From Gemmatimonadales bacterium (lineage in GTDB: Bacteria; Gemmatimonadota; Gemmatimonadetes; Gemmatimonadales; GWC2-71-9), in assembly GCA_038321865.1 (NCBI GenBank), contig JBBQFH010000032.1, positions 1-36,567 on the forward strand: 36,567 bases of DNA, in the 5' to 3' direction. The number at the start of each line of letters is the position of its first letter. Position 1 is the stretch's first letter. Position numbers and translations under genes: made by a program. Below are positions 5,293-35,137 of this stretch, in pieces. The notes beneath the pieces are model-generated. The model was given only the letters and a program-made list of their open reading frames with translations, did no database searches and was not told the origin of the DNA.

Positions 5293-5321
5293 TTGACTCC
5301 TCCCCTGCCTGCCGATACGTT
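5293..5321 (+). promoter_or_regulatory. Sigma70-type promoter TTGACT-N17-TACGTT for the DUF58 operon
   Basis: Near-consensus -35 and -10 with 17-nt spacer; ATG 9 nt downstream of the -10. Confidence 0.65.
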
Positions 5322-5330
5322 GCCCCCGGG

Positions 5331-6254: not shown

Positions 6255-8035
6255 TCGGCTTTCTCCATCCGGGACTGCTCGCGGGGCTCGCCGCCGCCGG
6301 GATCCCCGTCGTCCTGCATCTGGTGGCCCGGCGCGAGCCGCCCACGGTGATCTTTCCCGCCGTCCGCTACCTCGTGACGACCACCCAGGAGCACCACCGC
6401 AGGCTCAAGCTGCAGCACTGGCTGCTCCTGCTGGTCCGGACCCTGCTCATCGCCGCCGTGGTCATGGCGGCTGCCGGTCCAACCGTCCGGCTCAGTGGCG
6501 TTCCGGGACACCCGCCGACCGCACTGGTCGTCGTGGTGGACAACAGCGCGAGCAGCAGTGCGGTCACCGGGGGAACGCCACGCATCGCGCAGCTCCGGGC
6601 CGCCGCGCGCGCCGCGCTCGAGCGCGCCACCCCGGCCGACGCGCTCTGGCTCCTGACTGCCGACGGCACGCCCCGGCGAGACGACCGCGCCGCCCTGCTC
6701 GCGCTGGTCGACAGCCTCACCCCCTCCCCCCGACGCGTCGATCTTGGCCAGGCGCTCCGTCTCGCCGATGCGGTCGTGGCGCAAGACTCCCGGCCGGCCG
6801 AAGTGATGCTCCTGACCGACCTGCAGGCCAGCGCAGTCGCGCCCGCCGCTCCGGCCGCGTCGCTCCTCGTGGGCCGGCCCGCCGACGAAGGCCCTCAAAA
6901 CCTTGGGATCGCGTCCCTCGTCACCGGCCCGCAGCCCTGGGCGCTCGATGGGGGTCGGGTGGCGGTGGCACTGGCCGGCGATTCCGGACGGTCCGTGTCC
7001 GTGGCCGTGCGGCTGGGTGATCGGCCGGGCCGGCAGGCGCTCGGTGCGGCCGGCGGTGCCGTGACGGTTTCGCTTCCGGGTGCGCCGCCGGGCTGGTGGC
7101 TGGTGACCGCCGAGCTCGATGCGGATGAAATGCGGCTGGACGACCGCCGATCCGCATACGTGCGGATCGCGCCGGTCGCCCGGGTGAGCTGGAACGCCGG
7201 CGACCGGTTTCTCGGCTCCGCCGCGGAGGTGCTCGCGGCCAACGGACGAATCGCTCGCGGCGGCGACGTCTCCCTGGGTTCGCTGGGCCCGGGCGTCTCG
7301 ATCATTGTGCCGCCCTCCGACCCCTCGGCGCTCGGCGCGCTCAATCGTGCGCTGGCGCGGCGCGGTGTCACCTGGCGGTTCGGGGCGCTGAGCGCCACCA
7401 CCACGAACACCGACAGCGGCACGACGCTCGGCCGTCACACGGTGAGCCGCCGATACGCGCTGGAGAGCACCGGCAGCGGACGCACCGGCGTGCTCGCGAC
7501 CGCCGGGGGCACACCGTGGGCCGTCCGCAGTGCGGGGGTGGTCCTGCTGGGAAGCCGCCTCGAGCCGGAGTGGACCGATCTGCCGGTGTCGGCCGAATTC
7601 GTCCCGTTCGTTGATCGCCTGGTCAACCGGATCGCGCGGGGTGAGCTGGCCATGGTCACCGGCATCGCGGGAGATCCGGTCACTCTCCCCGACCTTGTGA
7701 CCGAGGTCCGTCTGGGGGCCCGCAGCTGGAGGGTGGAAGGCGGTGATTATTTCCGGCCCGCCGAGCCCGGCGCCCATCTCCTGCTGGCCGGGGCCGACAC
7801 GGTGGGGGCGCTGAACGTCGGAATCGACCCGAGGGAGTTCCAGCTGCGACGGATGCCGGATGCCCAGGTCCGGGAGCTCTGGAAGGGCGTCCGGATCGTG
7901 CCGCTGGCCAAGGCGGGCGGCGCGGCCTTTTCGTCGCTGGCACTGGCCGATTTCAGAGGTCCGCTGCTCTGGGCCGCGCTGGTGTTGGCACTGGGCGAGT
8001 TGCTCCTGGCGAGCGCGTGGCGGAGACGGGGATGA
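6251..8035 (+). CDS. BatA-domain / vWA-like membrane protein
   Basis: N-terminal FLHPGLLAGLAAAGIPVVLHL...FPAVRYL BatA motif, VVVDNSASS, C-terminal TM helix. ATGA overlap with DUF58. Confidence 0.85.
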   Translation: MIGFLHPGLLAGLAAAGIPVVLHLVARREPPTVIFPAVRYLVTTTQEHHRRLKLQHWLLLLVRTLLIAAVVMAAAGPTVRLSGVPGHPPTALVVVVDNSASSSAVTGGTPRIAQLRAAARAALERATPADALWLLTADGTPRRDDRAALLALVDSLTPSPRRVDLGQALRLADAVVAQDSRPAEVMLLTDLQASAVAPAAPAASLLVGRPADEGPQNLGIASLVTGPQPWALDGGRVAVALAGDSGRSVSVAVRLGDRPGRQALGAAGGAVTVSLPGAPPGWWLVTAELDADEMRLDDRRSAYVRIAPVARVSWNAGDRFLGSAAEVLAANGRIARGGDVSLGSLGPGVSIIVPPSDPSALGALNRALARRGVTWRFGALSATTTNTDSGTTLGRHTVSRRYALESTGSGRTGVLATAGGTPWAVRSAGVVLLGSRLEPEWTDLPVSAEFVPFVDRLVNRIARGELAMVTGIAGDPVTLPDLVTEVRLGARSWRVEGGDYFRPAEPGAHLLLAGADTVGALNVGIDPREFQLRRMPDAQVRELWKGVRIVPLAKAGGAAFSSLALADFRGPLLWAALVLALGELLLASAWRRRG

Positions 8036-11000
8036 GCCTCCGCCTCGTGATCGACGCCTTTGAGCGGTCGGCTGCCGCGTCGGAGCTCCTGTCGCGTTTG
8101 CCCGCGCGCGGGGCGGCGCTCCGCCTCGGCGGGCTTCCGGGCTCGAGCGGCGGCGTGCTGGCCGCCTGGCTCGCACGCGTCGAGGCCCAACGGCTGCTGG
8201 TAATTGTCGCGCCCGCTCCCGGCGACGCGGAGCGCTGGTTGACCGACCTCGGGCACCTGACCGACGCCGCGGTCGCCCTCTACCCCCAGCGCGAGGCGCT
8301 CGGCGAGGATGAGCCGCACTACGAGATCGCCGGCGAGCGCGCCGAGACGATCGAGTCGGTGCTGGGCGGCCGGCTCCGAATCCTGGTGACGACCGCCCGT
8401 GCGACGGCGGAGAAAACGCTGGTGCCCGCGGCGCTCGAGGCCATGCGCATGCGGCTCGCCGTCGGTGAGCGGCGACCGCCCGCCATGGTGGCCGCCGAGC
8501 TCGAGACGATGGGATACCACCGGGTGCCGACCGTGACGGAGGTGGCCGAATACAGCGTGCGGGGCGGGATTCTCGACATATACGGGTTCGGCATGGCGGG
8601 CCCGGCCCGGCTCGAGTGGTGGGCGGACGACATCTCGTCGATCCGCGGCTTCGATCTCACGACGCAGCGGTCCACCGACGAGATCATGGGCATTACGGTG
8701 CTCCCGATCGACACCCGGTCGCTCCGGAGCGATACCGGCGGGGCCGAGCCGGCCCGCCGGACGCTCCTCGAGCTGCTGCCGCCGGACGCGCTCCTCATCG
8801 AGGAGGCGACCGGCCCGGATGCGGACGAGGTCGCGCGCGCGTGGAACGAGGCCGAGCATCATCTCGACATCGCGAGACGGCTGGGCGAGGCGGTGCCGAG
8901 TCGCGACGAGATTTTCGAGGAGCCCGCCAGGTGGCGAAGTCGGATCGCGGCCTTTCCGCGCCTGGTGCTGCGTGACGAGGCCGCCGACCTCCAGATGGGC
9001 TTCTTCCCGCCCGAGAAGGTCGATCGCGACCTGAACCGTCTGCGCGCGGTGATCGCGGGCTCGCCGGCCACGCTGATTCTGTGCGACAACGAAGGCCAGC
9101 TTGAGCGGATGGAAGAGCTGCTCGAGGACGGCGGCCGGCGGGCCTCGAGTGCGACTCTCGCGGTCGGCGCGCTGGAGGGCGGGTTCGTCATGCCGTCGCT
9201 CCGGGTACTCACCGATCACGAAATCTTCCGGCGGGCGCGGCGGCTCCGCCGCCCGCGCCGTTACCGGCAGGCCGCGCCGTCGTCCGCGACCGGTGCCCTC
9301 ACCGTGGGCGACTACGTCGTGCATCTCGATCACGGGATCGGGATCTATCGCGGCATCGACACGGTGCGGGTCGCCGAAAGCACCATCGAGGTGGCGGTCG
9401 TCGAATACGAGGGCGGAGATCGGCTCAACGTGCCGCTGTACCGGCTCGATCAGCTGGAGCGCTACCGCGCGGCCGGTGACGACGGCGACCACCCGCCGCC
9501 CAAGCTGCACCGCCTGGGCGGCTCGTCCTGGCAAAAGGTGCGGGACCGGACGCGCAAGGCGATCAAGCAGATGGCGGCGGAGCTGCTCGACCTCTACGCC
9601 CGGCGGAGCGTGACGGGCGGGTACGCCTTCCCCCCGGATTCCAAGTGGCAGCGCGAGCTGGAGTCCGCCTTCCTCTATGAGGACACCCCCGATCAGCGCA
9701 AGGCGACCGACGACATCAAGCGCGACATGGAGCAGCCGCGTCCGATGGACCGCCTGCTCGTCGGCGATGTGGGCTACGGCAAGACCGAAGTGGCGGTTCG
9801 AGCCGCCTTCAAGGCGGTGCAGGGTGGCAAGCAGGTGGCGGTCCTCGTGCCGACGACGATCCTTGCCGAACAGCACGGCCGCACCTTTGCCGAGCGCCTG
9901 GCCGATTATCCGGTGAAGATCGAGGTGCTCTCGCGGTTCCGCACCGCGAAGGAACAGAAACAGGCGCTGGAGCGAATGGCCGACGGACAGACCGACGTCG
10001 TGATCGGCACCCACCGGCTGCTGTCCAAGGACGTGATCTTCAGGGATCTCGGCCTCCTGATCGTGGACGAGGAGCACCGCTTCGGCGTGAAGCACAAGGA
10101 GCGGCTCAAGGAGATCCGGCTGCAGGTGGACGTGCTGACGCTCACCGCGACGCCGATTCCGCGGACGCTGCACCTGTCGCTCGCCGGCCTGCGCGACCTC
10201 ACGCTGATCGAGACGCCGCCGCGCGACCGCTCGCCGGTGCTGACCTTCGTCGAGCCGTGGGACGACGGCCTGCTCGAGGAGGCCTTTGCCCGCGAGCTCG
10301 ATCGCGGCGGCCAGGTCTTCATGGTGCACAACCGGATCGAGACGATCGAAACGATCGCGGCGCGGGTCCGGTCGCTGGCGCCGCGAGCCCGCGTGGCGGT
10401 GGCCCACGGCCAGATGCCGGCCGAGCAGCTGGAGCAGGTGATGCGCGGGTTCGTGGCGGGCGAGGTGGACCTGCTCGTCACCACGATGATCGTGGAGTCC
10501 GGCCTCGACGTCCCCAACGCGAATACCATGGTCGTCCACGATGCGCACCGGTTGGGCCTGGCGCAGCTCTACCAGCTGCGCGGCCGGGTCGGTCGCAGCC
10601 ACCGCCGGGCCTACTGTTATCTCCTGGCGCCGGACGCGATCGACGCGGAAGCCGAGGAGCGGCTCAAGGTGCTCGAGCACCACACTGACCTCGGCGCCGG
10701 ATACCGGATCGCGCTCAAGGACCTGGAGCTGCGCGGCGCCGGCAACCTGCTCGGGTCGGAGCAGTCGGGCCACGCGCACGCGGTCGGGTTCGATCTCTAT
10801 CTGCGCTGGCTGGAGGAAACGGTGAAGGCGCTGCGGGGGCAGGGCGGCCGGGAGCAGCCGCTGCCGCCCGACGTGGTGCTCGATCATCCGTCGCACCTTC
10901 CGGATGCGTATGTGGCGGACGACGACGTGAAGCTCGACCTGTACCGCCGACTGGCGCGGGCGGTGTCGTCTGGCGACATTGATCAGTTGCGCGAGGAAAT

Positions 11001-11298
11001 GCGCGAGCGATTCGGCCCGCTGCCGCCCGAGGCGGAGACGCTGCTCGACATGGCCCGGCTTCGGGTCGTCGGGGGTGCACTCGGCCTGCAGCACGTGCTG
11101 GTCCGCGGCGACGAGGCGCGCCTGACGTTTCGGCCGGGCACGGCACCGCGGATGGCCGGCCTCACCGCCGCCCTCGACGACGTCCAGCTGGCCGCTGAAG
11201 TGCGCCGCACCGTGCCGCTGTCGCTCCGGCTGACGCGGCTGGGCGGTGAACCGATGATTCCCGCGCTCGTCCGAGCGCTCAAGGCCGTAGCGAAGTGA
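8032..11298 (+). CDS. mfd: Transcription-repair coupling factor Mfd
   Basis: UvrB-like N-terminus (VRGGILDIY), CarD/RID (GDYVVHLDHGIG), GDVGYGKTEVA, DEEHRFG, QLRGRVGRS and TRCF C-terminus. ATGA overlap with the BatA gene. Confidence 0.97.
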   Translation: MSLRLVIDAFERSAAASELLSRLPARGAALRLGGLPGSSGGVLAAWLARVEAQRLLVIVAPAPGDAERWLTDLGHLTDAAVALYPQREALGEDEPHYEIAGERAETIESVLGGRLRILVTTARATAEKTLVPAALEAMRMRLAVGERRPPAMVAAELETMGYHRVPTVTEVAEYSVRGGILDIYGFGMAGPARLEWWADDISSIRGFDLTTQRSTDEIMGITVLPIDTRSLRSDTGGAEPARRTLLELLPPDALLIEEATGPDADEVARAWNEAEHHLDIARRLGEAVPSRDEIFEEPARWRSRIAAFPRLVLRDEAADLQMGFFPPEKVDRDLNRLRAVIAGSPATLILCDNEGQLERMEELLEDGGRRASSATLAVGALEGGFVMPSLRVLTDHEIFRRARRLRRPRRYRQAAPSSATGALTVGDYVVHLDHGIGIYRGIDTVRVAESTIEVAVVEYEGGDRLNVPLYRLDQLERYRAAGDDGDHPPPKLHRLGGSSWQKVRDRTRKAIKQMAAELLDLYARRSVTGGYAFPPDSKWQRELESAFLYEDTPDQRKATDDIKRDMEQPRPMDRLLVGDVGYGKTEVAVRAAFKAVQGGKQVAVLVPTTILAEQHGRTFAERLADYPVKIEVLSRFRTAKEQKQALERMADGQTDVVIGTHRLLSKDVIFRDLGLLIVDEEHRFGVKHKERLKEIRLQVDVLTLTATPIPRTLHLSLAGLRDLTLIETPPRDRSPVLTFVEPWDDGLLEEAFARELDRGGQVFMVHNRIETIETIAARVRSLAPRARVAVAHGQMPAEQLEQVMRGFVAGEVDLLVTTMIVESGLDVPNANTMVVHDAHRLGLAQLYQLRGRVGRSHRRAYCYLLAPDAIDAEAEERLKVLEHHTDLGAGYRIALKDLELRGAGNLLGSEQSGHAHAVGFDLYLRWLEETVKALRGQGGREQPLPPDVVLDHPSHLPDAYVADDDVKLDLYRRLARAVSSGDIDQLREEMRERFGPLPPEAETLLDMARLRVVGGALGLQHVLVRGDEARLTFRPGTAPRMAGLTAALDDVQLAAEVRRTVPLSLRLTRLGGEPMIPALVRALKAVAK

Positions 11299-11320
11299 CT
11301 GCCCTTTTCCTGGAGACGTG

Positions 11321-12817
11321 ATGCGCCGCTTGTTGATCGCCGTCGGTCTGATCGCCCTCGCCGGTTGCTCGAATTTCCGCGACCTGTTCTCGGCGCACGC
11401 CGACGTGGCGGCCAGGGCCGGCTCGCTGGAGCTCACCACCGGCCGGCTGTCCCAGATTCTGGCCGGGCCCAAGGGCGCGCAGCTCAACCGCGAGGCGTCC
11501 CAGTACGTCGGCAATCTGTGGGTCGACTACGCCCTGTTCGCCCAGGCCGTGGCCACCCGGAAACTGCCGTCGGACTCGGCGGCGATCGCCGAGGTGTTCT
11601 GGCCGGACATCGCCGATATCCGGTCGAAGCACTGGTTCGATTCGTTGCTCGCCCGCCGGAGCCACGTCAAGCCGGGTTCCGCCGACAGCGTGTACAACGG
11701 CAACGAGATCCGGGTGTTCCAGCACATGCTCTTCCGGGTGGAGCCGAACGCGGTTCCCGAGGAGCGGGCCACCGTCCACAAGAAGGCGGAGGCGGTGCTG
11801 GCCCGGGTGAAGGCGGGGGCGGATTTCGGCCAGCTCGCGTCGCAGCTGTCGGAAGACCCCGGCAGCGCGCAGGACCAGGGGTTTCTTCCGCCCCGCCCCC
11901 GCGGGGCGTGGGCCACGGCCTTCGACAGCGCGGGGTGGTCCCTCGCGCCGGGCGCGACGAGCGGGATCGTGGAAACGCCGTACGGGTACCACATCGTCAG
12001 ACGGCCGGCCGCGACAGTCGTCCAGCCGCGGCTCGAGGCCTGGCTGCGTGAAGGCGCCGGCGTCCGGCTCGACTCGGTCTACCTCGACAGCCTCGGCCTG
12101 CAGCGGAAGGTGAAGATCGCCGCGGGCGCGCCGGCGACGGTGCGCGCGGCGGTCGATGACATCGACGCGAACAGCACCTCCCGCAAGACGGTGGCGACGT
12201 ACGACGGCGGCGAGATGACGGTGGGCGACGTGCTCCGGTGGGTGCGGCAGATCCCGCCGGCCTACATCGCGCAGATCAAGGAGGCGAAGGACTCACAGCT
12301 GGTGCAGTTCATCCGTCAGGTGACCAACAGCCAGCTGCTCGTGCGCCAGGCCGACTCCGCGCACGTGGCGCTGACACCGCTCGAGTGGCAGGAGATCCGC
12401 CAGCACTACAACGGGCAGGTCGACTCGCTCCGCGCGGACATGGGCATCGCCGGCGCGGATTTCAACGATTCGACGCTGTCGGGCGGCGACCGCGTGAAGG
12501 TGGCCGGGCTCAAGCTCGACCAGTATTTCGATGCGCTGCTCGCCGGCCGGACCCGGCTCCGCCCGCTGCCGTCGACGCTGGCCGCCGTGTTGCGGCAGCG
12601 GACGCCCCACAAGCTCTACGAGGCCGGTTTGGCCCGCGCCCTCGAGCAGGCAAAGGCCGTTCGGGCCAAGGCCGACTCGGCCGCCGGGCTGCCGGCGCAG
12701 GGCACCACGATGATCCCGCCGGGCGCCATGCAGCCCGCCCCGGGCCCGTCGCCCGCGGCGCCCGCGCCATCCTCGCCAAACACCGCGACGCCCGCCTCAC
12801 CGGCGCCGAGGAAGTGA
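11321..12817 (+). CDS. Lipoprotein peptidyl-prolyl isomerase (PpiC/parvulin type)
   Basis: Lipobox LAGC; HMLF...DFGQLASQLSED.GS..GFL...ETPYGYHIV rotamase motif; GGAG SD. Confidence 0.85.
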   Translation: MRRLLIAVGLIALAGCSNFRDLFSAHADVAARAGSLELTTGRLSQILAGPKGAQLNREASQYVGNLWVDYALFAQAVATRKLPSDSAAIAEVFWPDIADIRSKHWFDSLLARRSHVKPGSADSVYNGNEIRVFQHMLFRVEPNAVPEERATVHKKAEAVLARVKAGADFGQLASQLSEDPGSAQDQGFLPPRPRGAWATAFDSAGWSLAPGATSGIVETPYGYHIVRRPAATVVQPRLEAWLREGAGVRLDSVYLDSLGLQRKVKIAAGAPATVRAAVDDIDANSTSRKTVATYDGGEMTVGDVLRWVRQIPPAYIAQIKEAKDSQLVQFIRQVTNSQLLVRQADSAHVALTPLEWQEIRQHYNGQVDSLRADMGIAGADFNDSTLSGGDRVKVAGLKLDQYFDALLAGRTRLRPLPSTLAAVLRQRTPHKLYEAGLARALEQAKAVRAKADSAAGLPAQGTTMIPPGAMQPAPGPSPAAPAPSSPNTATPASPAPRK

Positions 12818-23666: not shown

Positions 23667-26600
23667 CTAGAGGTCGGGCGTTCCCTGCAGGCGGCATCCG
23701 GCCGGCTCCCAGCCGCCGCCGGCTGCACGCTGCACCTCGGCGCGGAAGTTGAGCACCACGTCACGCCGATTGCCGAAGCTGCTCTTCCACGTCACCTGCG
23801 CCATGAAGTCCGCGAAGGCATGGTCTCCCGATGTCTGGGCCGCCGGGGCCACGCCCGCCGTGGTGGTGGCGAACGCCCACTCCTTCCGCCGCATCAGCGT
23901 CAACAGCTTCTCCGAATTCTTGCGGTCGCGATCGGTCGCGGGCTGATACAGCGCCGCCAGGCGGCCGGCGTCTACGGCCTTCAGCGCCGCGAAACAGTCG
24001 TTGGCGGCGGCGCGTGCGGCCGACTCAGCGCCGGCGGTGCTGCCCGCGGCGGGTGGTGTCACGGCCGCCGGTGCGGGGCGCTCCACCGCCGGCTTCGGGA
24101 CGACGGCGACGAGCAGATCGCCGCTGACCCCGTCGATCGTCGCGGTGATCGTCGCGCGTCCGGGCCGCCGCCCGACGACGGTCCCGTTGGCCGGGTCGAC
24201 GGATGCGACCGCCGGCGCATCCGAGCTCCAGATGGCTCGGCGGCCCGTCATCGCTCGGCGACCCGAATCGCGCGCGGCGGCACGGAGCGAGACCGTGTCG
24301 CCCTCGGCCACCGACGCCGAGCCGGTGACCGCCACGCTCGCAACCGCCGCCGCGGACGCGACGCCGGGCTCCGGCTTCCCTGCCACGGTCACGACGATCG
24401 TCGCGCTGTGCGGTCCGGCCAGCGCGGTAATCGTCGCCACACCGGGCCGGCTGGCCGTGACGCGGCCGGATGCGTCCACCGCGGCGGTGCGGGCATCGCT
24501 CGATGACCAGACGGGCGCGTCGCCGCTCAGGGCGTTGCCGCGCGCGTCCAGCATGAACGCCCGGAGCGGCGCGCGCTGGCCCGCTGTGAGCACCAGCGTG
24601 ACCGGCCGGATGACCAGCCGCGACGCCGCCGGCCCGGGCGCCGACGAGTTGCCTGCCGGCGAAGCCGACGGAGTGGTCGGGGCGGGAGCGCCGGTCGACG
24701 GCGGGGCGGGCGGAGTGATGACCGCGTGCTCATCCGGCGTGTCCGCCCCGCGGGTGAGGAGCAGGACGGCCCCGGCGATGCCGATCACCGCCAGCACACC
24801 CCACACCACGGCGCGGCGAGGGCGCCAGCGTGCCGGCGCTGGTGTCACCCCCGCCACAACGGGCGCGGCAGCCACGACGATCCGGGCGGTGCCCGATACC
24901 CCTTCGGCCGTCGCCGTGAGCTTCGTCTTTCCCGGTGCGACGGCGGTGACGACACCGTCCGGGGTCACCCGGGCGATCCGCTCGCTTCCGCTGGTCCATC
25001 TCACATGGCGCTCGAGCGGCGCGCCGGCCGCGTCGCGCACGCCGACATTGAGCCGGACCGACTGGCCGATCTCGAGCGGTCCCGCCGGCTCGCCGATCAC
25101 GACGGTGGCGACCGGGACCTCGGCCACCGCGACCACGGCTGACGATTCCCGATCCTCGCATGTCGCGACGATGGTGGCGGAGCCGGCACCGCGCGCCGTC
25201 AGCGCGCCACTCTCGTCCACTTCGGCCACCGCCGGATCGCTCGAAAGCCAGTGGACCATGCGGTCAGCCAGCCGCTGGCCGCTCGCATCCACGGCGTCGG
25301 CGGTCAGTTCCGCGCGTTGCCCGACCAACAGCTGACGCGGCACCCTGCCCAGCCGCACCTTGGCGACGGCGACTAGTCGGACCGCCAGCTCGACGGACGA
25401 CTCCAGCTCGCCGACCGTCGCGGTAATGCGCGCCGACCCCGGCGCCGTGGCGACGGCGAGACCGGCCGCCGAGATGGTGGCGATGGCGGGGTCGCTGGTG
25501 GCCCAGGCGACTACGGGCCTGAGCGGAATGCCCCGGCGATCCTGCGCGATCACCGAGAGCTGCGCGCGGGCGCCGACGACCAGCTCCGTGACGTCAGCGA
25601 CAACCTCAAGCTCGGCCGGCCGCGCGGGCCGCACCTCGATGCGCACCGACTCGCTCGCGTCGCCGGCCTGCGCCGTGATCGTCACACTGCCGGCGTTTCG
25701 GGTCGCGACCGCACCGTCCGTCCCGACTGTCGCGACGGCCGGCTCGCTCGACGTCCAGCTCACCCGGCTCCCGCGCAGCTCGGCGCGGGTCGCATCCAGC
25801 ACCTGCGCGGTCAGCGTGAACGTGTCGCCGGCTTCCACCTCGTCCGGCGCGCCGCCCAGCGTGATCAGCGCGGCGCGGGGGCTGGGCGTCGTGGGCGGCG
25901 TGGCGATCCGTGCGGCCCGCAGCGCCTCGGCCGGCGATGCGGCGACCCGGCTGCCGCCGACCAGCGCCTCGAGCTCGAGGCGGAGCGGATCATCGTCCGT
26001 GAGGGGGACTGCTCCCAGCGCCTGGAGCGCAGCGGGCATCGTGGGGAATCGCTCGGCCGGGGTCTTGGCCAGCATCCGGAGTACGGCATCCGCCAGTGAG
26101 GGGGGACAATCGGGTCGCACATCGGCCAGAGGCGCCGCGGTCTTCTCGAGGTGGCCCTGCATGATGGCGTAGCTCGACCCGGCGAACGGCGGTGCGCCGG
26201 TGAGCAGTTCGTAGGCGACCACGCCGAGCGAGTACTGGTCGGACGCCCAGGTCACCGTCTCCGCAACGCACTGTTCCGGACTCATGTAGGCCGGAGTACC
26301 CACCATGGTCCCGGTCTTCGTCTGGCCCGGCACCTCAGCCACCTTGGCGATGCCGAAGTCGGTGACGATCGCGTTCCCGTCGCGGTCGAGCAGGATGTTG
26401 GCGGGCTTGATGTCGCGGTGGATGACCCCGCGACGGTGCGCGTAGGCGAGCCCGCTCCCGACCTGGAACAGGATAGAGCGGATGATGGGGATCGGCAGGA
26501 TTCCCGCCGCCTGCAGCACCACATCGAGCGGCTGGCCGTCTACGAACTTCATCACGAAGAAGTGCAGGTCGTCGAGCTGACGGACGGTGTGGATCGTGAT

Positions 26601-26948
26601 GATGTTGGGGTGACTGAGATTGGCGACCGTCACCGCTTCCTGCCGGAAGCGGTCCACCATGCCCTCGCCCATCATCATGCCCGGGGCCATCACCTTGATC
26701 GCCACTAGGCGATTGAGCGTGACTTCCTGCGCCAGGTAGACGGCCGCCATTCCGCCCCGGCCGAGCTCGCGAAGGACGTGAAACTCGCCGGTCGTGGCGG
26801 TCTTGAGCCGCTCCTGGACCTGGGCCCACGGCGAATAGGTCGGCACGGCGGCGGTGGGGGTGGCCGGCGATCCCGACGCGATGCCGCACTTGGGGCAGAA
26901 CCGGTCGTTCGCGGTGAGCGGCTCGCCGCAGGCGCGACAGCTGGTCAT
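23667..26948 (-). CDS. Hanks-type Ser/Thr kinase with N-terminal Zn ribbon, six Big_2 Ig-like repeats, one TM helix and a C-terminal NTF2-like domain
   Basis: CRAC/CPKC; GRGGMAAVY, VAIK, HRDIKPAN, DFG, GTPAYMSPE; six W.S..P.VA.V...G.V.....G...ITA repeats; TM VVWGVLAVIGIAGAVLLL. Confidence 0.92.
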   Translation of the reverse strand: MTSCRACGEPLTANDRFCPKCGIASGSPATPTAAVPTYSPWAQVQERLKTATTGEFHVLRELGRGGMAAVYLAQEVTLNRLVAIKVMAPGMMMGEGMVDRFRQEAVTVANLSHPNIITIHTVRQLDDLHFFVMKFVDGQPLDVVLQAAGILPIPIIRSILFQVGSGLAYAHRRGVIHRDIKPANILLDRDGNAIVTDFGIAKVAEVPGQTKTGTMVGTPAYMSPEQCVAETVTWASDQYSLGVVAYELLTGAPPFAGSSYAIMQGHLEKTAAPLADVRPDCPPSLADAVLRMLAKTPAERFPTMPAALQALGAVPLTDDDPLRLELEALVGGSRVAASPAEALRAARIATPPTTPSPRAALITLGGAPDEVEAGDTFTLTAQVLDATRAELRGSRVSWTSSEPAVATVGTDGAVATRNAGSVTITAQAGDASESVRIEVRPARPAELEVVADVTELVVGARAQLSVIAQDRRGIPLRPVVAWATSDPAIATISAAGLAVATAPGSARITATVGELESSVELAVRLVAVAKVRLGRVPRQLLVGQRAELTADAVDASGQRLADRMVHWLSSDPAVAEVDESGALTARGAGSATIVATCEDRESSAVVAVAEVPVATVVIGEPAGPLEIGQSVRLNVGVRDAAGAPLERHVRWTSGSERIARVTPDGVVTAVAPGKTKLTATAEGVSGTARIVVAAAPVVAGVTPAPARWRPRRAVVWGVLAVIGIAGAVLLLTRGADTPDEHAVITPPAPPSTGAPAPTTPSASPAGNSSAPGPAASRLVIRPVTLVLTAGQRAPLRAFMLDARGNALSGDAPVWSSSDARTAAVDASGRVTASRPGVATITALAGPHSATIVVTVAGKPEPGVASAAAVASVAVTGSASVAEGDTVSLRAAARDSGRRAMTGRRAIWSSDAPAVASVDPANGTVVGRRPGRATITATIDGVSGDLLVAVVPKPAVERPAPAAVTPPAAGSTAGAESAARAAANDCFAALKAVDAGRLAALYQPATDRDRKNSEKLLTLMRRKEWAFATTTAGVAPAAQTSGDHAFADFMAQVTWKSSFGNRRDVVLNFRAEVQRAAGGGWEPAGCRLQGTPDL

Positions 26949-27167
26949 CGAATGCGCGCCCGCCGCCGGGCCGCGGCAGGCCGTCCGAAGGTGCCGACGT
27001 CAGGAAGGCGGATCGGGATGGAGGTCATCCTGTCGGGTGGAGGAAGTACGTCGGGTGTGCGCCCGGGGACCATTCCGCTGGCAGGCGCAGACGCGAAGGC
27101 ACTAAGTTGCTGTGAGGCCAGACGTTCCGCAAGCGCACAGCCGGGTTCGCACCGGGGGCGCATCGTG

Positions 27168-27196
27168 TGGACGCGGAGCGATGATCGCCTTAACTT
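27168..27196 (+). promoter_or_regulatory. Putative sigma70-type promoter TGGACG-N17-TAACTT
   Basis: 17-nt spacer, in the divergent intergenic region upstream of 27265. Confidence 0.4.
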
Positions 27197-27264
27197 GAGC
27201 GTTCCCATTTCACATCCGACCTCCGCCGGCCCTGGCCGCGGCGGGTCTACCAACGGAGCCGGTC

Positions 27265-28983
27265 ATGCTGCGTGATAACGGGCCCACCAGACTGAACGTG
27301 GTCCCGAATCGTTCGGCGCCGCAGGCCGACGCGCTGCTCGGCGCGGTCAAGGAGGCCGCGGCCGCCGATTTCGACGTGCTGGGCGAGATCGGCCGGGGCG
27401 AGGCCGGGGTGATCATTTACCTCGCCAGCGAAGCGTCCAGCCGCCGCCTCGTGGCGCTCCGGCTGCAGCGTGACGGGCAGCTGGCCGACGAGTTTACCCT
27501 CGAGATCGTCCGACATCTCGACAACTCCATGCCGGCGCCGGAGAGCAAGTGCGTGCAGTGCGGCAAGGCGATCAAGGGATGGGCCCGCTTCTGCAGCTAC
27601 TGCGGCGCCGACTTCACCGGCGTCGCGCCGAAGGAAGGCGACGCGGTCGAGCGCGCGCTCATGCTCGAGGCCGTCAAGGATGCGGTGTCCGACGAGTTCG
27701 ATGTGCTGGGCGAGATGTCGCGCACGGAAGGCGGAGGCGCGGTGTATTTCGCCTGCGACCGGAAGACGGGAAAGATCGTCGCGCTCCGGCTGCAGCGGGA
27801 AGGCGCGGGCGAGGAGTTCTCGGTCGGACTCACCACCGCTCTCAAGCCGATCGCGCGATCGCTGGGCGTGAAGTCTCCCGCCACGCAGGCGCTGTCGGCG
27901 TTGTCCCGCCCGAACGAACCCGCGGGCCTGCCGCCAGTGGTCCCGCCGGCCGCCCCTTCTGTGCCGCCGGCGCCGAGACCGGGTCCGGCGGCGCCGCCGC
28001 CATTGCCGCCCGCCGCTGCCGGCATGAGCGGCCGGAATCGGCTGATGCTGGCGGGGGTCCTCGCCGTCGCGGTGGCGACCGCGCTCATCGTCATCAGTCT
28101 GCCCAAATCCGCCCCGGCTCCGATCGCGCCGGCGCCGGTGGTCGACTCAGTGCCCCCGGCCCCCAGGGTGAACACCCCGGCGGCAGTCGTTCAGCGACCG
28201 GAGTCGACGGTGTCCCGGGCGGCTCCGCCGCCCGTCGTGGCAACGGCACCGGTGGCGGCGCGGCCGAAGGATGCGACGATCCGGATCGCCGGGCTGCCGC
28301 AGGGTGCCGAGATCAGGGTGGACGACCGGATCCGCCCCGGCCGCAGCCTCTCGGTGGCGCCGGGTCGCCACATCATCGCCGTCTCTCTCGGTGGCTATCT
28401 GCCCCGCACCGACACGCTCCGGCTCCGGCCGGGCGAGGCGTACACCTGGGCCCCGACGATGGTCGGCGATACGCCGAAGGCCGTCGTGCGTGCGCCGGAC
28501 TCCCGGCCGGCACCCAAGCCCGTGGCTTCCTCCGGCCCGACCTGCGCGGCGAGCGTGCAAAGCGAGCAGTGGCCGGCGGCGTTTGAGTCATGCATGCGCG
28601 AGGCGCTGGCGGGCAGCGCCAGCGCCAAGCGGAGCGTGGCGCTGCTGTATGAGCGGGGCAAGGGCGTCGCGCGGAGCGACGAGAGTGCCGCGCGCTGGCT
28701 CGAGGATGCCGCGAACGCCGGCGATCGCGATGCGATGGATCAGCTTGCCGCGTGGTACGAACGTGGTCGCGGCGTCAAGAAGGATCAGGCTGCGGCGCTC
28801 AAGTGGTACACGCGCGCCGGCGACGCGGGCCAGGTCAGCGCCCAGCTCACGCTGGGCGAGACGTACGAGAAAGGCCGGCTGGGCGTCATTAAGGACAAGG
28901 CGAAGGCCCTTGACTGGTACCGCAAGGCCGCCGCCCAGGGGAACAAGGCCGCGGCCGACAAGGTGCGGGACCTGGCGAAGTAG
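27265..28983 (+). CDS. Membrane protein: two kinase N-lobe-like fragments around a Zn ribbon, TM helix, PEGA-like domain, SEL1 repeats
   Basis: FDVLGEIGRG..VIIYLA..RLVALRL and FDVLGEMSR..GAVYFA..KIVALRL; CVQC/CSYC; TM LMLAGVLAVAVATALIVI; LYERGKGV, WYERGRGV, YEKGRLGV and WYRKAAAQGN. Confidence 0.85.
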   Translation: MLRDNGPTRLNVVPNRSAPQADALLGAVKEAAAADFDVLGEIGRGEAGVIIYLASEASSRRLVALRLQRDGQLADEFTLEIVRHLDNSMPAPESKCVQCGKAIKGWARFCSYCGADFTGVAPKEGDAVERALMLEAVKDAVSDEFDVLGEMSRTEGGGAVYFACDRKTGKIVALRLQREGAGEEFSVGLTTALKPIARSLGVKSPATQALSALSRPNEPAGLPPVVPPAAPSVPPAPRPGPAAPPPLPPAAAGMSGRNRLMLAGVLAVAVATALIVISLPKSAPAPIAPAPVVDSVPPAPRVNTPAAVVQRPESTVSRAAPPPVVATAPVAARPKDATIRIAGLPQGAEIRVDDRIRPGRSLSVAPGRHIIAVSLGGYLPRTDTLRLRPGEAYTWAPTMVGDTPKAVVRAPDSRPAPKPVASSGPTCAASVQSEQWPAAFESCMREALAGSASAKRSVALLYERGKGVARSDESAARWLEDAANAGDRDAMDQLAAWYERGRGVKKDQAAALKWYTRAGDAGQVSAQLTLGETYEKGRLGVIKDKAKALDWYRKAAAQGNKAAADKVRDLAK

Positions 28984-29098: not shown

Positions 29099-30199
29099 AT
29101 GCCATCGTACGTCTTCGAGGTCGCCACGGAGCGAGGTACCGAGCGGTACCCGTTCACGCTGGACGACGACCGGGCGCTCGGGCCCCAGATCACGCAGGTG
29201 CTCGAGGAGCTGCGGCAACGCGGCGTCATCCTCAAGGGTGGGGGAGACGACGAGCTCGCGGCCTTCTGGGGCGGAGGCGAGCTCGACCTCACGCGCCGCG
29301 CGGCCGAGCAGGCGATGTCGCCGGCCCGTCCGATCGAGCTGCGCATGCGGCAACGATCGGCTCCCGCACGCACGCAGCCGGCCGACGCGACGCTGCCGAA
29401 AGGTGTGCTCGCGTCGGCGGCGTGGGGATATGCCGGCGCGTTCGCCGCATGGGTGATCATCTCCCGCTGGACCGACACCGGTGCCGTGATCACCGATTAC
29501 GTCCGGCTCGACCAGGCCACCATGCTGACGCTCGGTGCCTTGGTCGGCGCGTCGGCGTTGGCGGGAATGGCACTGCGGCAGCGCCGCTCGGTTCCCCTGG
29601 GCTTCCTGATCGGGCTGTGTCTTGCTTCCGCCGGTGCGGGGATCGCGGCCTCGCTTGCCCTCCTCCTTCCGGCCGTCGTCTCGCCGCGGGGATTCATTGT
29701 GGCGCGCGTGCTCGGCTGGGCCCTGTGTGGCGGACTCGCTGCCGCGTTGCTCTCGCTCTACGGCGCCGTGATGGACCTGCGCGGCTCAGCCGAGAGTCTG
29801 GCACTGGGCCTGGTCGCCGGTGCCGTGGCCGGTGTGGTGTTCACGCTGCCGGGCCCCTCGGATCTCTGGCAGGCGGTGGCGTTCATGGCCTTCGGCAGCG
29901 GCGTTGCCGTGGCCGCGTGCGCGCCCGCATTGTGGCACGCGGCCGCGATCGTGGAATGGGCGGGCGGCCGGCGGAGGGCCGGAGTGCTGTCGCTGCGCGA
30001 GTGGCCGGTTCCCGACCGGGGAGCGGTCGCTCTGGCAGCCTCCCGTCTGGCGTGGCACGACGGCCGCGTGGCGTTGCATCCCGCGCCGTCGGGCGCGTCG
30101 GTCGATGGCCTGGCGGTGACCCAGCCCGTGTATCTGTCGGAGGGCCCGCTCTCGCTCGACGGCGTATCCTACCGGCTGCGCGTGCGGGCCGACGCATGA
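29099..30199 (+). CDS. Ubiquitin-like (YukD/EsaB-like) N-domain + about 6 TM helices + degenerate FHA-like C-domain
   Basis: Beta-beta-alpha-beta-beta pattern ending ELDLTRRAAEQAMSPARPIELR; six Gly/Ala-rich hydrophobic helices; C-terminal SVDGLAVTQPVYLSEGPLSLDGVSYRL. The ORF is secure; domain calls are by eye. Confidence 0.6.
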   Translation: MPSYVFEVATERGTERYPFTLDDDRALGPQITQVLEELRQRGVILKGGGDDELAAFWGGGELDLTRRAAEQAMSPARPIELRMRQRSAPARTQPADATLPKGVLASAAWGYAGAFAAWVIISRWTDTGAVITDYVRLDQATMLTLGALVGASALAGMALRQRRSVPLGFLIGLCLASAGAGIAASLALLLPAVVSPRGFIVARVLGWALCGGLAAALLSLYGAVMDLRGSAESLALGLVAGAVAGVVFTLPGPSDLWQAVAFMAFGSGVAVAACAPALWHAAAIVEWAGGRRRAGVLSLREWPVPDRGAVALAASRLAWHDGRVALHPAPSGASVDGLAVTQPVYLSEGPLSLDGVSYRLRVRADA

Positions 30200-31554: not shown

Positions 31555-31843
31555 CCTTGCAGCTGCCGGGATCGACGCCTTCCACGCGAATCCGGCCAAG
31601 GTTGTCGAGCTTGCCGGTGACGTATTTGCCGTCCGCGAGCTCCACCCTGAACGGTTCGCCCGCGATTGGCGACCCGTCACGCTCGGTCAGCGCGATGCCG
31701 ATCCAGTCCGGCTTCGTAGGGTCGGCGACCATAACGGCGGCCAGTGGGGCCGACTCGCCTGCGATCTTGGGTGCGGTCGCTGGCTCGCACTCCTTGCAGC
31801 CGCCGAGAGCGTCGGCCTGCGACTGACTGATCCGCATGTTCAT
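31511..31843 (-). CDS. Stand-alone transthyretin-like (VgrG/PAAR C-terminal extension type) protein
   Basis: WIGIALTERDGSPIAGEPFRVELADG...GKLDNLGRIRVEGVDPGSCKVTFPD..W, homologous to the PAAR C-terminus in this window. ATGA overlap with DUF4123. Confidence 0.75.
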   Translation of the reverse strand: MNMRISQSQADALGGCKECEPATAPKIAGESAPLAAVMVADPTKPDWIGIALTERDGSPIAGEPFRVELADGKYVTGKLDNLGRIRVEGVDPGSCKVTFPDRDAREWKKR

Positions 31844-32409
31844 TGGCGTCGCACGGTGACTCGGGGCTTGCTGGGCGTCGGGGTCTCGAGCCAGCGCCGG
31901 GTCACGAGCGTAACGCCGTACGTCTCGAGATCGGTCACGCCGTACGCGGAGACCGGCCCGAAGAACTCCGTCAGCTGCGGGGCATCGCAGGTGGGGAGGA
32001 ACTTCGCGAGGACGCGCGGATCATAGAAGCGGAAGTACCAGGTATCGCCGTCGGGCCCATCGACGAGCAGGCACTTCCGAAAGTGGGCGCGTACGACCTG
32101 GATATCCGCGTCCGAGACTGCGAAGATGCCCCACGGATCCGTCCAGAGCGTTTCGGCCAGCCAGAGCAACGTCGTCGGGAGCAAGCGAACGAGGTACGGG
32201 GCGATGGCCGCGAGCTCCTGCTCCGCCGGAGGGCGGTACAGGGAGACTGCGAGCGCGGGGCCGAGTTCGGCGACTCGGAGCGGCACAGACGGCTCGTCGC
32301 AGGCGTCGAGCACGGCGTAGAGCGCTCCGCGCTCCGCCTCCCGCCCAAGGTCGGTGACCGAGACGGAACGGGTCGTCATGAGATCGGGCATCCCCGCAAT
32401 ATCCAGCAT
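31840..32409 (-). CDS. DUF4123 (Tap/Tec) T6SS effector adaptor-chaperone; start may be 32391 or 32379
   Basis: LYAVLDA, SLY, APYLV, WGIF, HFRK.LLV and YFRFYDPRVL..FL......FFGPV. Confidence 0.88.
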   Translation of the reverse strand: MLDIAGMPDLMTTRSVSVTDLGREAERGALYAVLDACDEPSVPLRVAELGPALAVSLYRPPAEQELAAIAPYLVRLLPTTLLWLAETLWTDPWGIFAVSDADIQVVRAHFRKCLLVDGPDGDTWYFRFYDPRVLAKFLPTCDAPQLTEFFGPVSAYGVTDLETYGVTLVTRRWLETPTPSKPRVTVRRQ

Positions 32410-32491
32410 GCCGCGGCGATGGCAAGGCGGACTGGACGGTGGGTTGTCTGGGCCGCAGATTCACCAGTTGCTCCTCACACGCAAGGTCTGC

Positions 32492-33136
32492 ATGCTCGCG
32501 CCGATCGCCCGCGTCGAAGATCTGCACGCCTGTCCCATGGCCACGCCCGCCGTGGTGCCGGTGCCGCACGTGGGCGGCCCGGTGAAAGGCCCGGGCGCCA
32601 TGACGGTGCTGGCCGGGGGGCAAATTGTTTGTGTGGCCGGGGACATCGCGATCTGCGTAGGTCCTCCTGACGTCATGTGCATGGGCTCCCCGACGGTGAT
32701 GGCGATGGGTCGTCCGGTCGTCCGTATCTGCGATCAGTCGGTCCACGGCGGCATGGTGCTCATCGGATTGCCGACGGTCATGGTCGGCGATTCGGGCGGG
32801 AACGGAAGCGCACAGGCGGGGACCATGAGCGCCGCGAAGGCCGGCGGGTCGGCATTCACGCGGGCCGAGTGCAACGCCAAGGCCGCTGCGAGCGTCGCGC
32901 GAGGGGTACCGTCACCGCCGCCGGCCACCGGACCGGCGTGGGTCGAAGTCGAAGTGGTCGCCAGCGATGGCAAGCCGCTGCCGTACCAGAAGGTGCGCGT
33001 GATTGACGGCGGCGGCACCGCCCGCATCGCGTTCAGCGACACCAGCGGCATCGCCCGCGTGGACGGCATGGCCAAGGGCGAATGCCAGATTACACTGGCA
33101 GACCTCGACCGGTCGTCGTGGGAACCTGTCGGGTGA
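32492..33136 (+). CDS. PAAR-domain spike-tip protein with C-terminal transthyretin-like extension
   Basis: PIARVEDLHACP...PHVGGP...GDIAICVGPPD...GSPTV...GRPVVRICD.SVHGG....GLPTVMVG, then WVEVEVVASDGKPLP... Confidence 0.88.
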   Translation: MLAPIARVEDLHACPMATPAVVPVPHVGGPVKGPGAMTVLAGGQIVCVAGDIAICVGPPDVMCMGSPTVMAMGRPVVRICDQSVHGGMVLIGLPTVMVGDSGGNGSAQAGTMSAAKAGGSAFTRAECNAKAAASVARGVPSPPPATGPAWVEVEVVASDGKPLPYQKVRVIDGGGTARIAFSDTSGIARVDGMAKGECQITLADLDRSSWEPVG

Positions 33137-33780
33137 CGACACACACCGTCCGGCAAGGCGAATTTCTGGCGCGGCTCGCCCAGGCTTACGGGTTCACGGA
33201 TCCGGATGTGATCTGGAATCTGCCGGAGAATCAGCCGCTCCGGGACGCCGGCCGGACCCCGACCACCCTGGCACCCGGTGATAACCTGTTCGTGCCCGAG
33301 CGCGTGGATCGTACGCTGCATGGCCCCACCGAACGCCGCTACACGGCCAAGGTGAAGCTATCGGTGGTGAGACTTCGTGTGCTGTTGCAGACCCTGGGCG
33401 GCGAAGCGCTCGCCAGCGAATCCGGGACGCTGCACACCGCGGCAGGCGATTCCAAGTTCACCACGGACGCCAAGGGTCTTCTTGACGTGGTCCTGACGGG
33501 CGTCACCGAGGCGGGCGAGCTGCGGCTCGCGGGCGACGGAACCACACTGCATCGCATTGTGATTCCACTCCACATTGGACACCTCGACCCGATCACAACG
33601 GTTCAGGGGCAGGAAGCTCGGCTCAACAGCCTGGGCTATCGCGCGGGCCTGGGAGGAGATGCATCCGCGCCGGCGTTTCGCTCCGCCGTCGAAGAATTCC
33701 AGTGTGATGAGCGGTTGCGGGTTGACGGGGTGTGCGGGCCGGCGACGCAGACGAAGCTCCGGAGTGCACATGGGAGCTAG
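33133..33780 (+). CDS. LysM + TTR-like + peptidoglycan-binding (PG_binding_1) protein
   Basis: GTG start overlapping the PAAR stop; HTVRQGEFLARLAQAYGF..IWN.PEN..L..P.TLAPGD.LFVP; TTDAKGLL; ARLNSLGY...AVEEFQ...LRVDGVCGPAT. Confidence 0.85.
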   Translation: MTTHTVRQGEFLARLAQAYGFTDPDVIWNLPENQPLRDAGRTPTTLAPGDNLFVPERVDRTLHGPTERRYTAKVKLSVVRLRVLLQTLGGEALASESGTLHTAAGDSKFTTDAKGLLDVVLTGVTEAGELRLAGDGTTLHRIVIPLHIGHLDPITTVQGQEARLNSLGYRAGLGGDASAPAFRSAVEEFQCDERLRVDGVCGPATQTKLRSAHGS

Positions 33781-35137
33781 TCCCGTGCCGCCCGATCAGG
33801 ACGTAACCGAGACGCCAGTCGCGCTGCCGGTGCTGGTTGCCCCGACGACCGGGACGGGGTTCAACACGATTCGCGAGCAGCTCGCGGCCGCGGCCGCGTG
33901 GCAGCTGGACGACATCCGCTTCGAATTCGACTCGTCGGTGATCTTGCCGGACGCGGAAGAGGAATTCGGGTTTCTCGCCGTGTTGCGCGCCGAGCACCCC
34001 AAGGCGCCGCTGGCGCTCTTCGGCCATGCGGACCCGACCGGCGATGATGACTACAACAAGGCACTGAGCGGGCGGCGGGCCATCGCCGTGTTCGGGCTGC
34101 TCACCCGGCGCGTCGCCTTGTGGGAACAACTGTTCTCGAAACCAATCGGCAACGACAAATGGGGTGATCGGGCACTCACGCTCATGCGGTCGGTCGTGGC
34201 CGGCGACGGGGATCCGCCACCCCCGCCGGCATCACCGGCAGAGCGCGCGCAATTATTCCGCGCCTACATGGACGAGCTCTGCCGTGATTTCAGCGGCACG
34301 CCATATCAGCTCGATGCAACGGCGGACTTCCTCGCCGGCGGGAAGGATCCCGGCGGCAAGGGGGACTTCCAGGGCTGCAGCGAGTTCAATCCCGAACTGA
34401 TGTTTTCAGCTCAGGAAAAAGCCGCGTTCGACCGCAGCGGCGACAAGGACGGGCGGGACCGGGAGAACGCCCCGAACCGGCGGGTGGTCGGGTTGCTGTT
34501 CCGGCCCGGTACTCGAGTTGACCCGGTCCGATGGCCGTGCCCGCGGGCCACTGAGGGCCCGGAGGCGTGCCATCGCCGCTTCTTCGCCGATGCCAGGGTG
34601 CGCCGTTCATTCCAGGGGCAGCGCCGGACTCACGCGGTCAATGGCGACACGTTCGCCTGCCGCTTCTACGAACGCATCGCTGACAGCGCGCCGGGCCCAC
34701 GGCTGACGCGCCGGAATATTTTTCAGTACGGTGTGCCGCTCGGCAAGGGCGCCCCGTTCACCGAGACCGCCACGGTCCGCATCGTCAGCGAAGACGGCAA
34801 ACAGATCCGCACCTTCAAGGAAGCCGATGGGTTCCTCGCCGGCACGCATCGCGTCTTCATCTTCACGCGTGTCCGCACCGGTGTCCGGTACCGTTGCGAG
34901 GTGACCGACGGCGGTTTGACGTTCGAGCTGTTCAGCTTTACCGACTTGAGCAGGGTCCTCAATCCCGGAGACCCGCTGAACCTGCTGCAGCAGCCCCAGC
35001 CGGCCGGCCTTGTGGCGCTGCCGCCGCCGCCGCCCGCCAATTTTCAAGCGTTCACCGGTCCGCCGGATGCGGTGGACTTCACCGCGGTGGACGACGCGAC
35101 TGTGACGCGGGCTCCCATCACTACGGCCATCGTGTGA
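33770..35137 (+). CDS. OmpA C-terminal-like domain protein with large internal insertion, no signal peptide
   Basis: FEFDSSVI, LFGHADPTGDDDYNKALSGRRAIAV and a distant NRRV; GGAG SD before ATG 33770. Confidence 0.8.
   Translation: MGASPVPPDQDVTETPVALPVLVAPTTGTGFNTIREQLAAAAAWQLDDIRFEFDSSVILPDAEEEFGFLAVLRAEHPKAPLALFGHADPTGDDDYNKALSGRRAIAVFGLLTRRVALWEQLFSKPIGNDKWGDRALTLMRSVVAGDGDPPPPPASPAERAQLFRAYMDELCRDFSGTPYQLDATADFLAGGKDPGGKGDFQGCSEFNPELMFSAQEKAAFDRSGDKDGRDRENAPNRRVVGLLFRPGTRVDPVRWPCPRATEGPEACHRRFFADARVRRSFQGQRRTHAVNGDTFACRFYERIADSAPGPRLTRRNIFQYGVPLGKGAPFTETATVRIVSEDGKQIRTFKEADGFLAGTHRVFIFTRVRTGVRYRCEVTDGGLTFELFSFTDLSRVLNPGDPLNLLQQPQPAGLVALPPPPPANFQAFTGPPDAVDFTAVDDATVTRAPITTAIV

Follow-up and report, generated by a model that had tools for sequence, protein, structure and literature searches.

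What does a bacterium use the front part of a protein kinase for, when one gene encodes that part twice and lies head-to-head with a complete kinase gene? This arrangement is found in a 36,567-nt stretch (hereafter the window) of contig JBBQFH010000032.1 from a Gemmatimonadales bacterium (GCA_038321865.1). The protein in question, P0001, starts with two kinase N-lobe fragments placed around a Zn ribbon (the "stub" module). The original prediction was that it is a non-catalytic co-receptor or inhibitor that engages the N-lobe of the neighbouring kinase in response to a periplasmic ligand. We found that the stub is linked to a type VI secretion system (T6SS) cassette that is negative for TssJ, TssL and TssM. 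The explanation that we favour draws on analogy with known systems and stands about evenly between right and wrong: the stub would be a non-catalytic cytoplasmic scaffold, similar to YukC/EssB, in the membrane complex of a T6SS without TssJLM, with Thr190 as a possible gate. Below, P denotes module proteins, L loci and G genomes, G000 being the genome that contains the window.

Both open reading frames (ORFs) have the content first described for them (Table 1). The N-terminus of the kinase reads CRAC..RFCPKCG, followed by a helix and by EFHVLRELGRGGMAAVYLAQE..RLVAIK, and the catalytic set of a Hanks kinase is complete (VAIK, the alphaC Glu, HRDIKPAN, DFG and GTPAYMSPE/P+1 loop), with a Pkinase match at residues 56-307 (E 8.5e-49). 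In the stub protein, two units of helix plus beta1-beta3 surround CVQC..RFCSYCG; beta1-beta3 of repeats 1 and 2 lie at 27370-27468 and 27697-27795, with the helices directly before each. We found no HRD, DFG or C-lobe in its sequence and no Pkinase match to it in Pfam, and the transmembrane (TM) helix, PEGA domain and SEL1 repeats follow the module as predicted. The replacement of catalytic VAIK by VALR in both copies is true of P0001, which has Arg at the beta3 Lys position of both repeats and no alphaC in its model, but it is not a family rule, as repeat 1 has Arg in 60 and Lys in 39 of 149 relatives (repeat 2 has Arg in 119 of 146). Given this mixture, the Arg is not the point; the loss of alphaC and the C-lobe is.

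The two repeats are identical at 21 of 44 positions, and they agree with the neighbour kinase at 17 of 43 and 16 of 43. Using hhalign, the repeats matched each other at 99.6% and own-genome kinases at 95% and 80%, from the helix to beta3 only. The 3.4 Mb genome has 87 Hanks kinase ORFs, many in tandem clusters, and the helix ahead of beta1 is present in many of them, so the likeness to the neighbour needed an own-genome control. Among 82 own-genome kinase N-termini, the neighbour scores best for the helix-beta3 part of both repeats, and drops to second when the Zn ribbon is included. A kinase on contig C25 was considered as the source of a copy and rejected, as it leads only with the Zn ribbon counted (51.5 vs 46.1 bits). 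By sequence profile and by model, the module is a non-catalytic derivative of the Zn-ribbon kinase subfamily that includes the neighbour. With the Zn-ribbon-prefixed Gemmatimonadota Hanks kinases (PF00069) it shares the Zn ribbon, helix, beta1-beta3 sequence and sheet geometry; it differs in lacking alphaC, beta4 and the C-lobe, in the duplication of the unit, in a Gly loop that is one residue longer and in the loss of the first Gly in repeat 2. Pfam scans of 56 module sequences returned Zn ribbons and, in 10 of them, Pkinase with a best E of only 0.003, and the best E in a PDB sequence search was 0.008. No Pfam or NCBIfam family covers the module, the Atlas search returned only clusters without names, and plasmid records contained no match.

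An AlphaFold2 model based on 56 sequences (predicted local distance difference test, pLDDT, 80; predicted template modelling score, pTM, 0.76) shows each repeat as a helix plus a meander of four strands, without alphaC. The fourth strand, which follows beta3 in each unit and superposes on kinase beta5/hinge, is an addition to the first description. Residues ~10-67 of the model align with kinase N-lobes from beta1 to the hinge, skipping ~30 residues. The alignment with Staphylococcus aureus PknB includes 56 residues spanning 1-88, and thus reaches the hinge and puts the fourth strand at the place of beta5, as Glu88 is reported as the adenine-anchoring residue (PMC3372466). The beta5 window ranked outside the top five in sequence for both repeats, so the strand is beta5-like in position only. 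For the tail of repeat 2, the top-scoring of about 265 windows was the kinase P+1 loop (z 4.0), which we leave as a lead. The N-terminal 190 residues are thus modelled as one folded, non-catalytic module of two truncated Hanks N-lobes tied by a Zn ribbon. The expectation of an N-lobe fold was borne out in part: the repeats superpose on kinase N-lobes, with middling values in VIA (Z 7.0-7.3, root-mean-square deviation (rmsd) 2.2-3.0, 55-61 aligned residues, none reaching Z 8), but other folds tie, and Foldseek returned nothing at E<=0.001. These ties (Cystatin, MS5, Sec3, VirB8-like and YpmB rows, Z 5.6-6.8) would suit an exapted cystatin/PepSY-like binding fold, whose partner is unrelated to kinases or secretion and whose gene is a passenger at the island edge, as would the TPR-linked copies that persist in genomes without a T6SS. 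We consider such a role improbable, because the stub occurs in all ten T6SS genomes and is absent together with a ubiquitin-like domain from four cassettes, as described below.

We identified the module in 60 proteins, all with the same boundaries, in 27 of 401 genomes of the phylum, in 40 loci, and in 211 clusters at E<=1e-30. The ratio of nonsynonymous to synonymous substitution rates (dN/dS) was 0.11-0.28 in 8 of 8 pairs with close relatives. The stub module is a conserved Gemmatimonadota family. The missing catalytic motifs and C-lobe could otherwise have indicated a decayed or broken kinase gene without function, a reading that is practically untenable, as it is already contradicted by the shared boundaries, the number of clusters, the purifying selection and the confidently predicted fold.

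Architectures were counted in the best 150 representatives, many of which may be cut by contig ends; the Zn-ribbon-only false match P0149 was removed from column counts and 10 near-identical loci from alignment A2. The stub is joined to a TM helix in 52, at the C-terminus and without SEL1 in 47 of these (counted from the listing), stands alone in 33 (one of them a false match) and precedes a fused kinase in 27, of which 26 have the whole kinase domain. SEL1 is present in 31. With SEL1 this restricted and 47 relatives tail-anchored, a periplasmic SEL1 signal cannot be the general input, and the proposed SEL1-bound ligand thus lacks support as a general rule. Four tail-anchored relatives carry the double-stub module twice; tail-anchored proteins with four kinase fragments include P0062, P0064, P0065, P0089 and P0091, the second copy in P0091 having no Zn ribbon. 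Close homologues L033 and P0045 are in records labelled Bacillota and Armatimonadota; L033 shares 85% identity with the module of the window, which points to misbinning or transfer as the likely cause.

Clustering of neighbouring genes revealed, downstream of the stub gene in 15 loci including the window, genes for a 366-aa membrane protein and for a vWA protein. Beyond these are genes for TssB/TssC or for DUF4123, PAAR and OmpA proteins. On contig C42, the own genome encodes T6SS-iii-type TssB/TssC, VgrG, TssG, TssK and a Clp ATPase, which belong to its T6SS core. The TssC of this type was detected in 10 of the 401 genomes, from three families, and all ten are among the 27 stub genomes. In seven of the ten, stub and tssC share a contig and are 3-22 kb apart, and the T6SS-linked stubs fall into at least four separate clades. 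Plasmid records matched this TssC in only 7 cases, all Bacteroidota, at 20-24% identity. Pfam models of TssL, TssM and TssJ each found nothing in the five of the ten genomes that were scanned; the Escherichia coli control was positive, and distant homologues may have escaped these models. TssO, TssP, TssQ and TssR were absent among the scanned island proteins, and no genome search with those models was made. The core on C42 (L100) spans 4890-11819, and its TssG has an N-terminal PASTA-like domain, as does that of G357.

The 366-aa protein is EccD-like. Its model (pLDDT 84) comprises a ubiquitin-like domain, a TM bundle and an FHA-like domain; the best folds are EccD5 of ESX-5 (E 3e-4 and 5e-4; Z 11.0, rmsd 2.8, 88 aligned), and the C-terminus matches FHA (Z 8.9). 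The gene is present in 12 genomes, which are the ten TssC genomes, all with a stub, plus G225 and G301. These two have neither stub nor TssC: the SEL1 protein starts just before the TM helix, the partner has no N-terminal ubiquitin-like domain, and no frameshifted stub remnants were found upstream. The stub and the ubiquitin-like domain are likewise both absent from the L121 and L127 cassettes, making four cassettes in all. A shortened second cassette, consisting of TM-SEL1, TM-FHA-like without the ubiquitin domain, vWA and TM-FHA genes, was noted in L121:2646-6814 (G038), L090, L091 and L127, and also in genomes where TssC was not found.

The islands also carry TM-FHA proteins and a small soluble kinase. 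The latter was detected in G111, G126, G357, G038, G147, G197 and G106, and did not exceed generic scores in the own genome or G382 (G368 was left out). This Hanks kinase has no sensor part and a degenerate Gly loop; its gene follows those of the Clp ATPase and the TM-FHA protein, at L126:12816-13628, L125:15030-15824, L121:1918-2640 and L080:12549-13310. An FHA-TM protein is conserved at the island end (G000 C42 2597-3706; L121:7537-8886; L080:11361-12539), and its C-terminus has an H-x6-D...H-x-H pattern without a database match, which we take to resemble that of peptidoglycan peptidases.

Is the head-to-head kinase a dedicated partner of the stub? Pairing was counted where the stub is standalone and its locus extends 2 kb or more upstream, after dropping L052 (duplicate) and L067, L069 and L070 (partial). 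A divergent kinase lies within 3 kb in 7 of 48 other stub loci (chance 3%). All seven are in one clade (9 tree rows, 100/98), and thus represent one event. Any kinase is near the stub in 17 of 48 loci and in 9 of 39 outside L031-L039, compared with 21% of random sites in the own genome. Searching the same 401 genomes at E<=1e-95, with only five candidates scored per genome, we found the kinase subfamily in 128, with no stub seen in 114 of these; 14 of the 27 stub genomes have it and in 13 it was not seen. The idea of a dedicated pair is thus not supported by co-occurrence.

A complex prediction for residues 1-320 of the neighbour kinase (26 rows) with the stub module (56 rows) scored 0.02, which gives no answer either way. 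For comparison with the PknB dimer interface, the register was counted from the beta3 Lys of PknB, which we assume to be Lys40. In that register, all 26 subfamily kinases examined keep Leu at the Leu33-equivalent, where both stub repeats mostly have Ser/Thr; beta4, with the Asp76-equivalent, is absent from the stub, and the subfamily kinases have no Asp there. N-lobe dimerisation is reported to activate PknB-type kinases, and L33D and D76A to break the back-to-back interface (PMC13434768). A back-to-back dimer mimic is therefore doubtful. The original prediction is supported in part, in that the module is kinase-derived, non-catalytic and conserved, the neighbour is the best of 82 and 27 relatives have the module fused to a kinase, but alphaC-beta4 is missing and the Leu33-equivalent is not kept. 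A decoy or co-receptor that engages the neighbour's N-lobe when SEL1 binds a periplasmic ligand would account for the head-to-head order kept in seven other genomes, for the rank of the neighbour against both repeats and for the known activation by dimerisation. We regard it as very improbable, given the single clade, the many genomes with only one of the two partners, the interface differences and the lack of SEL1 in most relatives. On the explanation that we favour, the stub is not the neighbour's dedicated decoy, and the head-to-head kinase may be the one that phosphorylates Thr190 in its clade. As the stub gene travels with the T6SS rather than with the adjoining kinase, a membrane anchor part is likelier than a kinase decoy.

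The fused and tail-anchored forms indicate that the module also works outside T6SS, and this keeps alive a broader alternative, in which it is a general kinase-regulatory module that binds Zn-ribbon-prefixed Hanks kinases, either within the same fusion protein (in cis) or from the membrane (in trans), and inhibits, clusters or localises them, with T6SS as one pathway. Consistent with this are the 27 kinase fusions, the profile medians of 23.0 and 15.8 bits on the neighbour subfamily vs 14.1 and 6.6 on own-genome kinases, the subfamily kinases near stub genes on the same strand in G197 and G368, and the fact that tail-anchored forms have only the module to act with. However, outside L031-L039 a kinase is near the stub in 9 of 39 loci, against 21% of random sites, the fused kinases are just 33-39% identical to the neighbour kinase, and L121 keeps the TM-SEL1, vWA, FHA and small-kinase genes together without the stub. 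We judge this alternative unlikely as a full account, and it is partly compatible with the scaffold explanation.

In the own genome and its relatives, gene context shows the stub as the predicted cytoplasmic head of an inner-membrane protein with a single TM pass, whose gene is the first of three in a cassette of the Bacteroidota-like T6SS (stub-TM-PEGA-SEL1; ubiquitin-like-TM-FHA-like; vWA). According to the scaffold explanation, this cassette would form the membrane complex of the T6SS. The stub scaffold would bind FHA and ubiquitin-like domains and so dock the baseplate or time its assembly, as proposed by analogy with YukC/EssB. Thr190 is among the 8 most conserved columns of the module and lies at a poorly predicted edge of the fold. 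Position +3 is L/M/I/F in 115 of 125 sequences, +5 is mostly Pro (51 of 122), and upstream acids are partial. The motif described for mycobacterial Ser/Thr kinases has Thr, hydrophobic residues at +3 and +5, and acidic residues upstream (PMC6888350, PMC3138270), and Thr190 fits it only partly. That an island kinase phosphorylates Thr190 and creates an FHA site, as PpkA does on Agrobacterium TssL, is a possibility that falls a little short of an even chance. The head-to-head kinase may serve as the Thr190 kinase in its clade, which seems to be without the small island kinase.

Several known systems resemble parts of this one. YukC/EssB is described as the single-pass pseudokinase hub of the Firmicutes type VIIb secretion system (PMC9600267, PMC12599244). 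The YukC pseudokinase domain reportedly copurifies with the FHA domains of YukB, apparently without phosphorylation, and gives a weak signal with ubiquitin-like YukD (PMC9600267). As reported there, YukC/EssB has, like the stub protein, a single TM pass, a cytoplasmic non-catalytic kinase-derived domain and an outer domain, and is encoded with ubiquitin-like and FHA secretion parts. It differs in that YukC keeps a pseudokinase fold of ~216 residues, whereas the stub consists of two N-lobe fragments around a Zn ribbon, and the stub system is a T6SS in a diderm. Pfam scans of stub sequences gave no YukC match, and no direct sequence comparison with YukC was made. In relation to bacterial pseudokinases (YukC/EssB, MviN type), the stub shares the context of a single-pass protein with a cytoplasmic kinase-derived domain in a secretion locus with ubiquitin-like and FHA domains; the whole bilobed fold is not kept, as only N-lobe parts are modelled. 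By this analogy, the stub would work like a secretion-system pseudokinase scaffold without being a member of that family.

The Bacteroidota T6SS-iii is similar in other respects. Its TssN is described as resembling EccD in 7B9F, binding TssK and being joined by vWA and single-pass periplasmic proteins (PMC10781749). The EccD5 match of the window's EccD-like protein is the same entry, 7B9F. As reported, T6SS-iii TssNQOPR shares with the present system the lack of TssJLM, an EccD-like polytopic protein that carries a ubiquitin-like domain, a vWA protein, and proteins that cross the membrane once and have Ig-like or helical parts in the periplasm (PMC10781749), and the TssC here matches the T6SS-iii-type model and Bacteroidota records. 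In contrast to TssN, the ubiquitin-like domain is N-terminal here and precedes an FHA-like domain. None of TssQ/O/P has a cytoplasmic domain of any size, and the accessible text of that source mentions no kinase-derived part for T6SS-iii (PMC10781749). The hallmarks of Proteobacterial T6SS-i are TssJ, TssL and TssM, which gave no matches here in the Pfam scans described above. One Gemmatimonadetes plasmid T6SS, of type i4b, is reported (PMC9113992), and it does not match the TssC query of this island. The PpkA-TssL(pThr14)-Fha switch of Agrobacterium is similar in its bitopic inner-membrane protein with a cytoplasmic Thr, and in the kinase and FHA proteins of the cluster (PMC3953482). In the present case, TssL was not found and Thr190 is only a candidate phospho-site. 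It is somewhat unlikely, in our estimate, that these parts make up a third kind of T6SS membrane complex, in which a Bacteroidota-type tail sits on type-VII-like parts (EccD-like plus YukC-like), with the scaffold as a new fold of two N-lobe fragments that is switched by phosphorylation of one threonine.

Several observations count against the scaffold explanation, among them the stub fold Z-scores that tie with cystatin-like and VirB8-like rows. Three of the ten TssC genomes have the stub on one contig and tssC on another; the own genome is among them, and its contigs C32 and C42 have no end overlap. No match to this TssC was detected in 17 of the 27 stub genomes: seven of these have kinase fusions, and in others the stub gene follows a TPR gene or belongs to an extracellular contractile injection system (eCIS) locus. 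In G278, the eCIS locus includes an FHA gene, and a kinase precedes the stub. The EccD-like gene is downstream in 14 of the 39 loci L031-L069, some of which are cut short. As TssC is 77-94% identical among the ten genomes and the island is patchy, kinship and transfer inflate the co-occurrence counts; the island may have spread as a single unit and the co-occurrence reflect few events, and the four stub-less cassettes may reflect only one or two. The 47 tail-anchored and 27 kinase-fused forms show use of the module outside T6SS. Pfam TssN had no match in five genomes, where the control was silent too. Thr190 is lost in G106, a T6SS genome, and it aligns with a strand residue of repeat 1 and so may be structural.

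Table 1. Features of the window, with coordinates as positions in the whole 36,567-nt stretch
Feature	Position	Strand	Details
Hanks-type Ser/Thr kinase, intact	23667..26948	-	1093 aa; Zn ribbon, helix, kinase domain, Big_2 repeats flanking one TM (713-731), C-terminal domain
Gap between divergent start codons	26949..27264		316 bp
Stub protein (P0001)	27265..28983	+	572 aa; double kinase-fragment module, Pro-rich linker, TM, PEGA, three SEL1
Repeat 1	27328..27522	+	aa 22-86; helix, beta1-beta3, hairpin, fourth strand at beta5 position; without alphaC-beta4
C4 Zn ribbon	27550..27603	+	aa 96-113; four Cys in 148-149 of 149 relatives
Repeat 2	27643..27849	+	aa 127-195; helix, beta1-beta3 with conserved RxEGGGxVYF loop, fourth strand (low pLDDT)
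Thr190, candidate phospho-acceptor	27832..27834	+	Thr in 127 of 130 relatives, hydrophobic at +3
Single TM helix	28045..28101	+	aa 261-279; preceded by basic residues; probable N-in topology
PEGA domain	28273..28458	+	21.1 vs cut-off 20.8 bits
Three SEL1 repeats	28621..28968	+	domain scan
Peptidoglycan (PG)-binding gene remnant, 35 codons	28988..29095	+	first 21 residues match the start of the PG-binding protein at the same place in L031
EccD-like protein	29099..30199	+	366 aa; ubiquitin-like domain, TM bundle, degenerate FHA-like domain
vWA protein, 452 codons	30196..31554	+	by visual inspection, apparent signal peptide and C-terminal TM
DUF4123 protein	31840..32409	-	domain scan
PAAR protein	32354..33136	+	domain scan
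PG-binding protein and OmpA-domain protein of T6SS island	33082..35137	+	domain scan

The PG-binding gene is whole at the same place in L031 and L036 and reduced to a remnant in the window; DNA between the stub and EccD-like genes therefore seems to have been lost. DUF4123 is known as a family of T6SS effector chaperones. In the neighbour kinase, Big_2 Ig-like repeats also occur between the kinase domain and the TM helix (cytoplasmic by topology), besides those after it, and its C-terminal domain is shared with the fused stub-kinase P0096 (32% over 312 aa). In L088:8543-19611 (G278) and L051, a stub-SEL1 gene is right behind a Big_2-repeat kinase in an eCIS locus with an FHA-tail fusion.

We found no description of the stub module or of this T6SS in the open-access literature, including the accessible text of PMC9113992 and PMC11385963; tables of genome surveys may list the islands. 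This analysis contributes the counts of T6SS co-occurrence, the EccD-like partner, the joint absence of the two domains, and Thr190. If the scaffold explanation is true, a kinase N-lobe fragment without alphaC would have been turned into a stable repeat domain, unlike the pseudokinases that keep the whole fold. Candidate parts would then be named for anchoring a TssJLM-free T6SS outside Bacteroidota, and this anchoring idea is directly testable, as it involves three genes, one threonine and defined partner domains.

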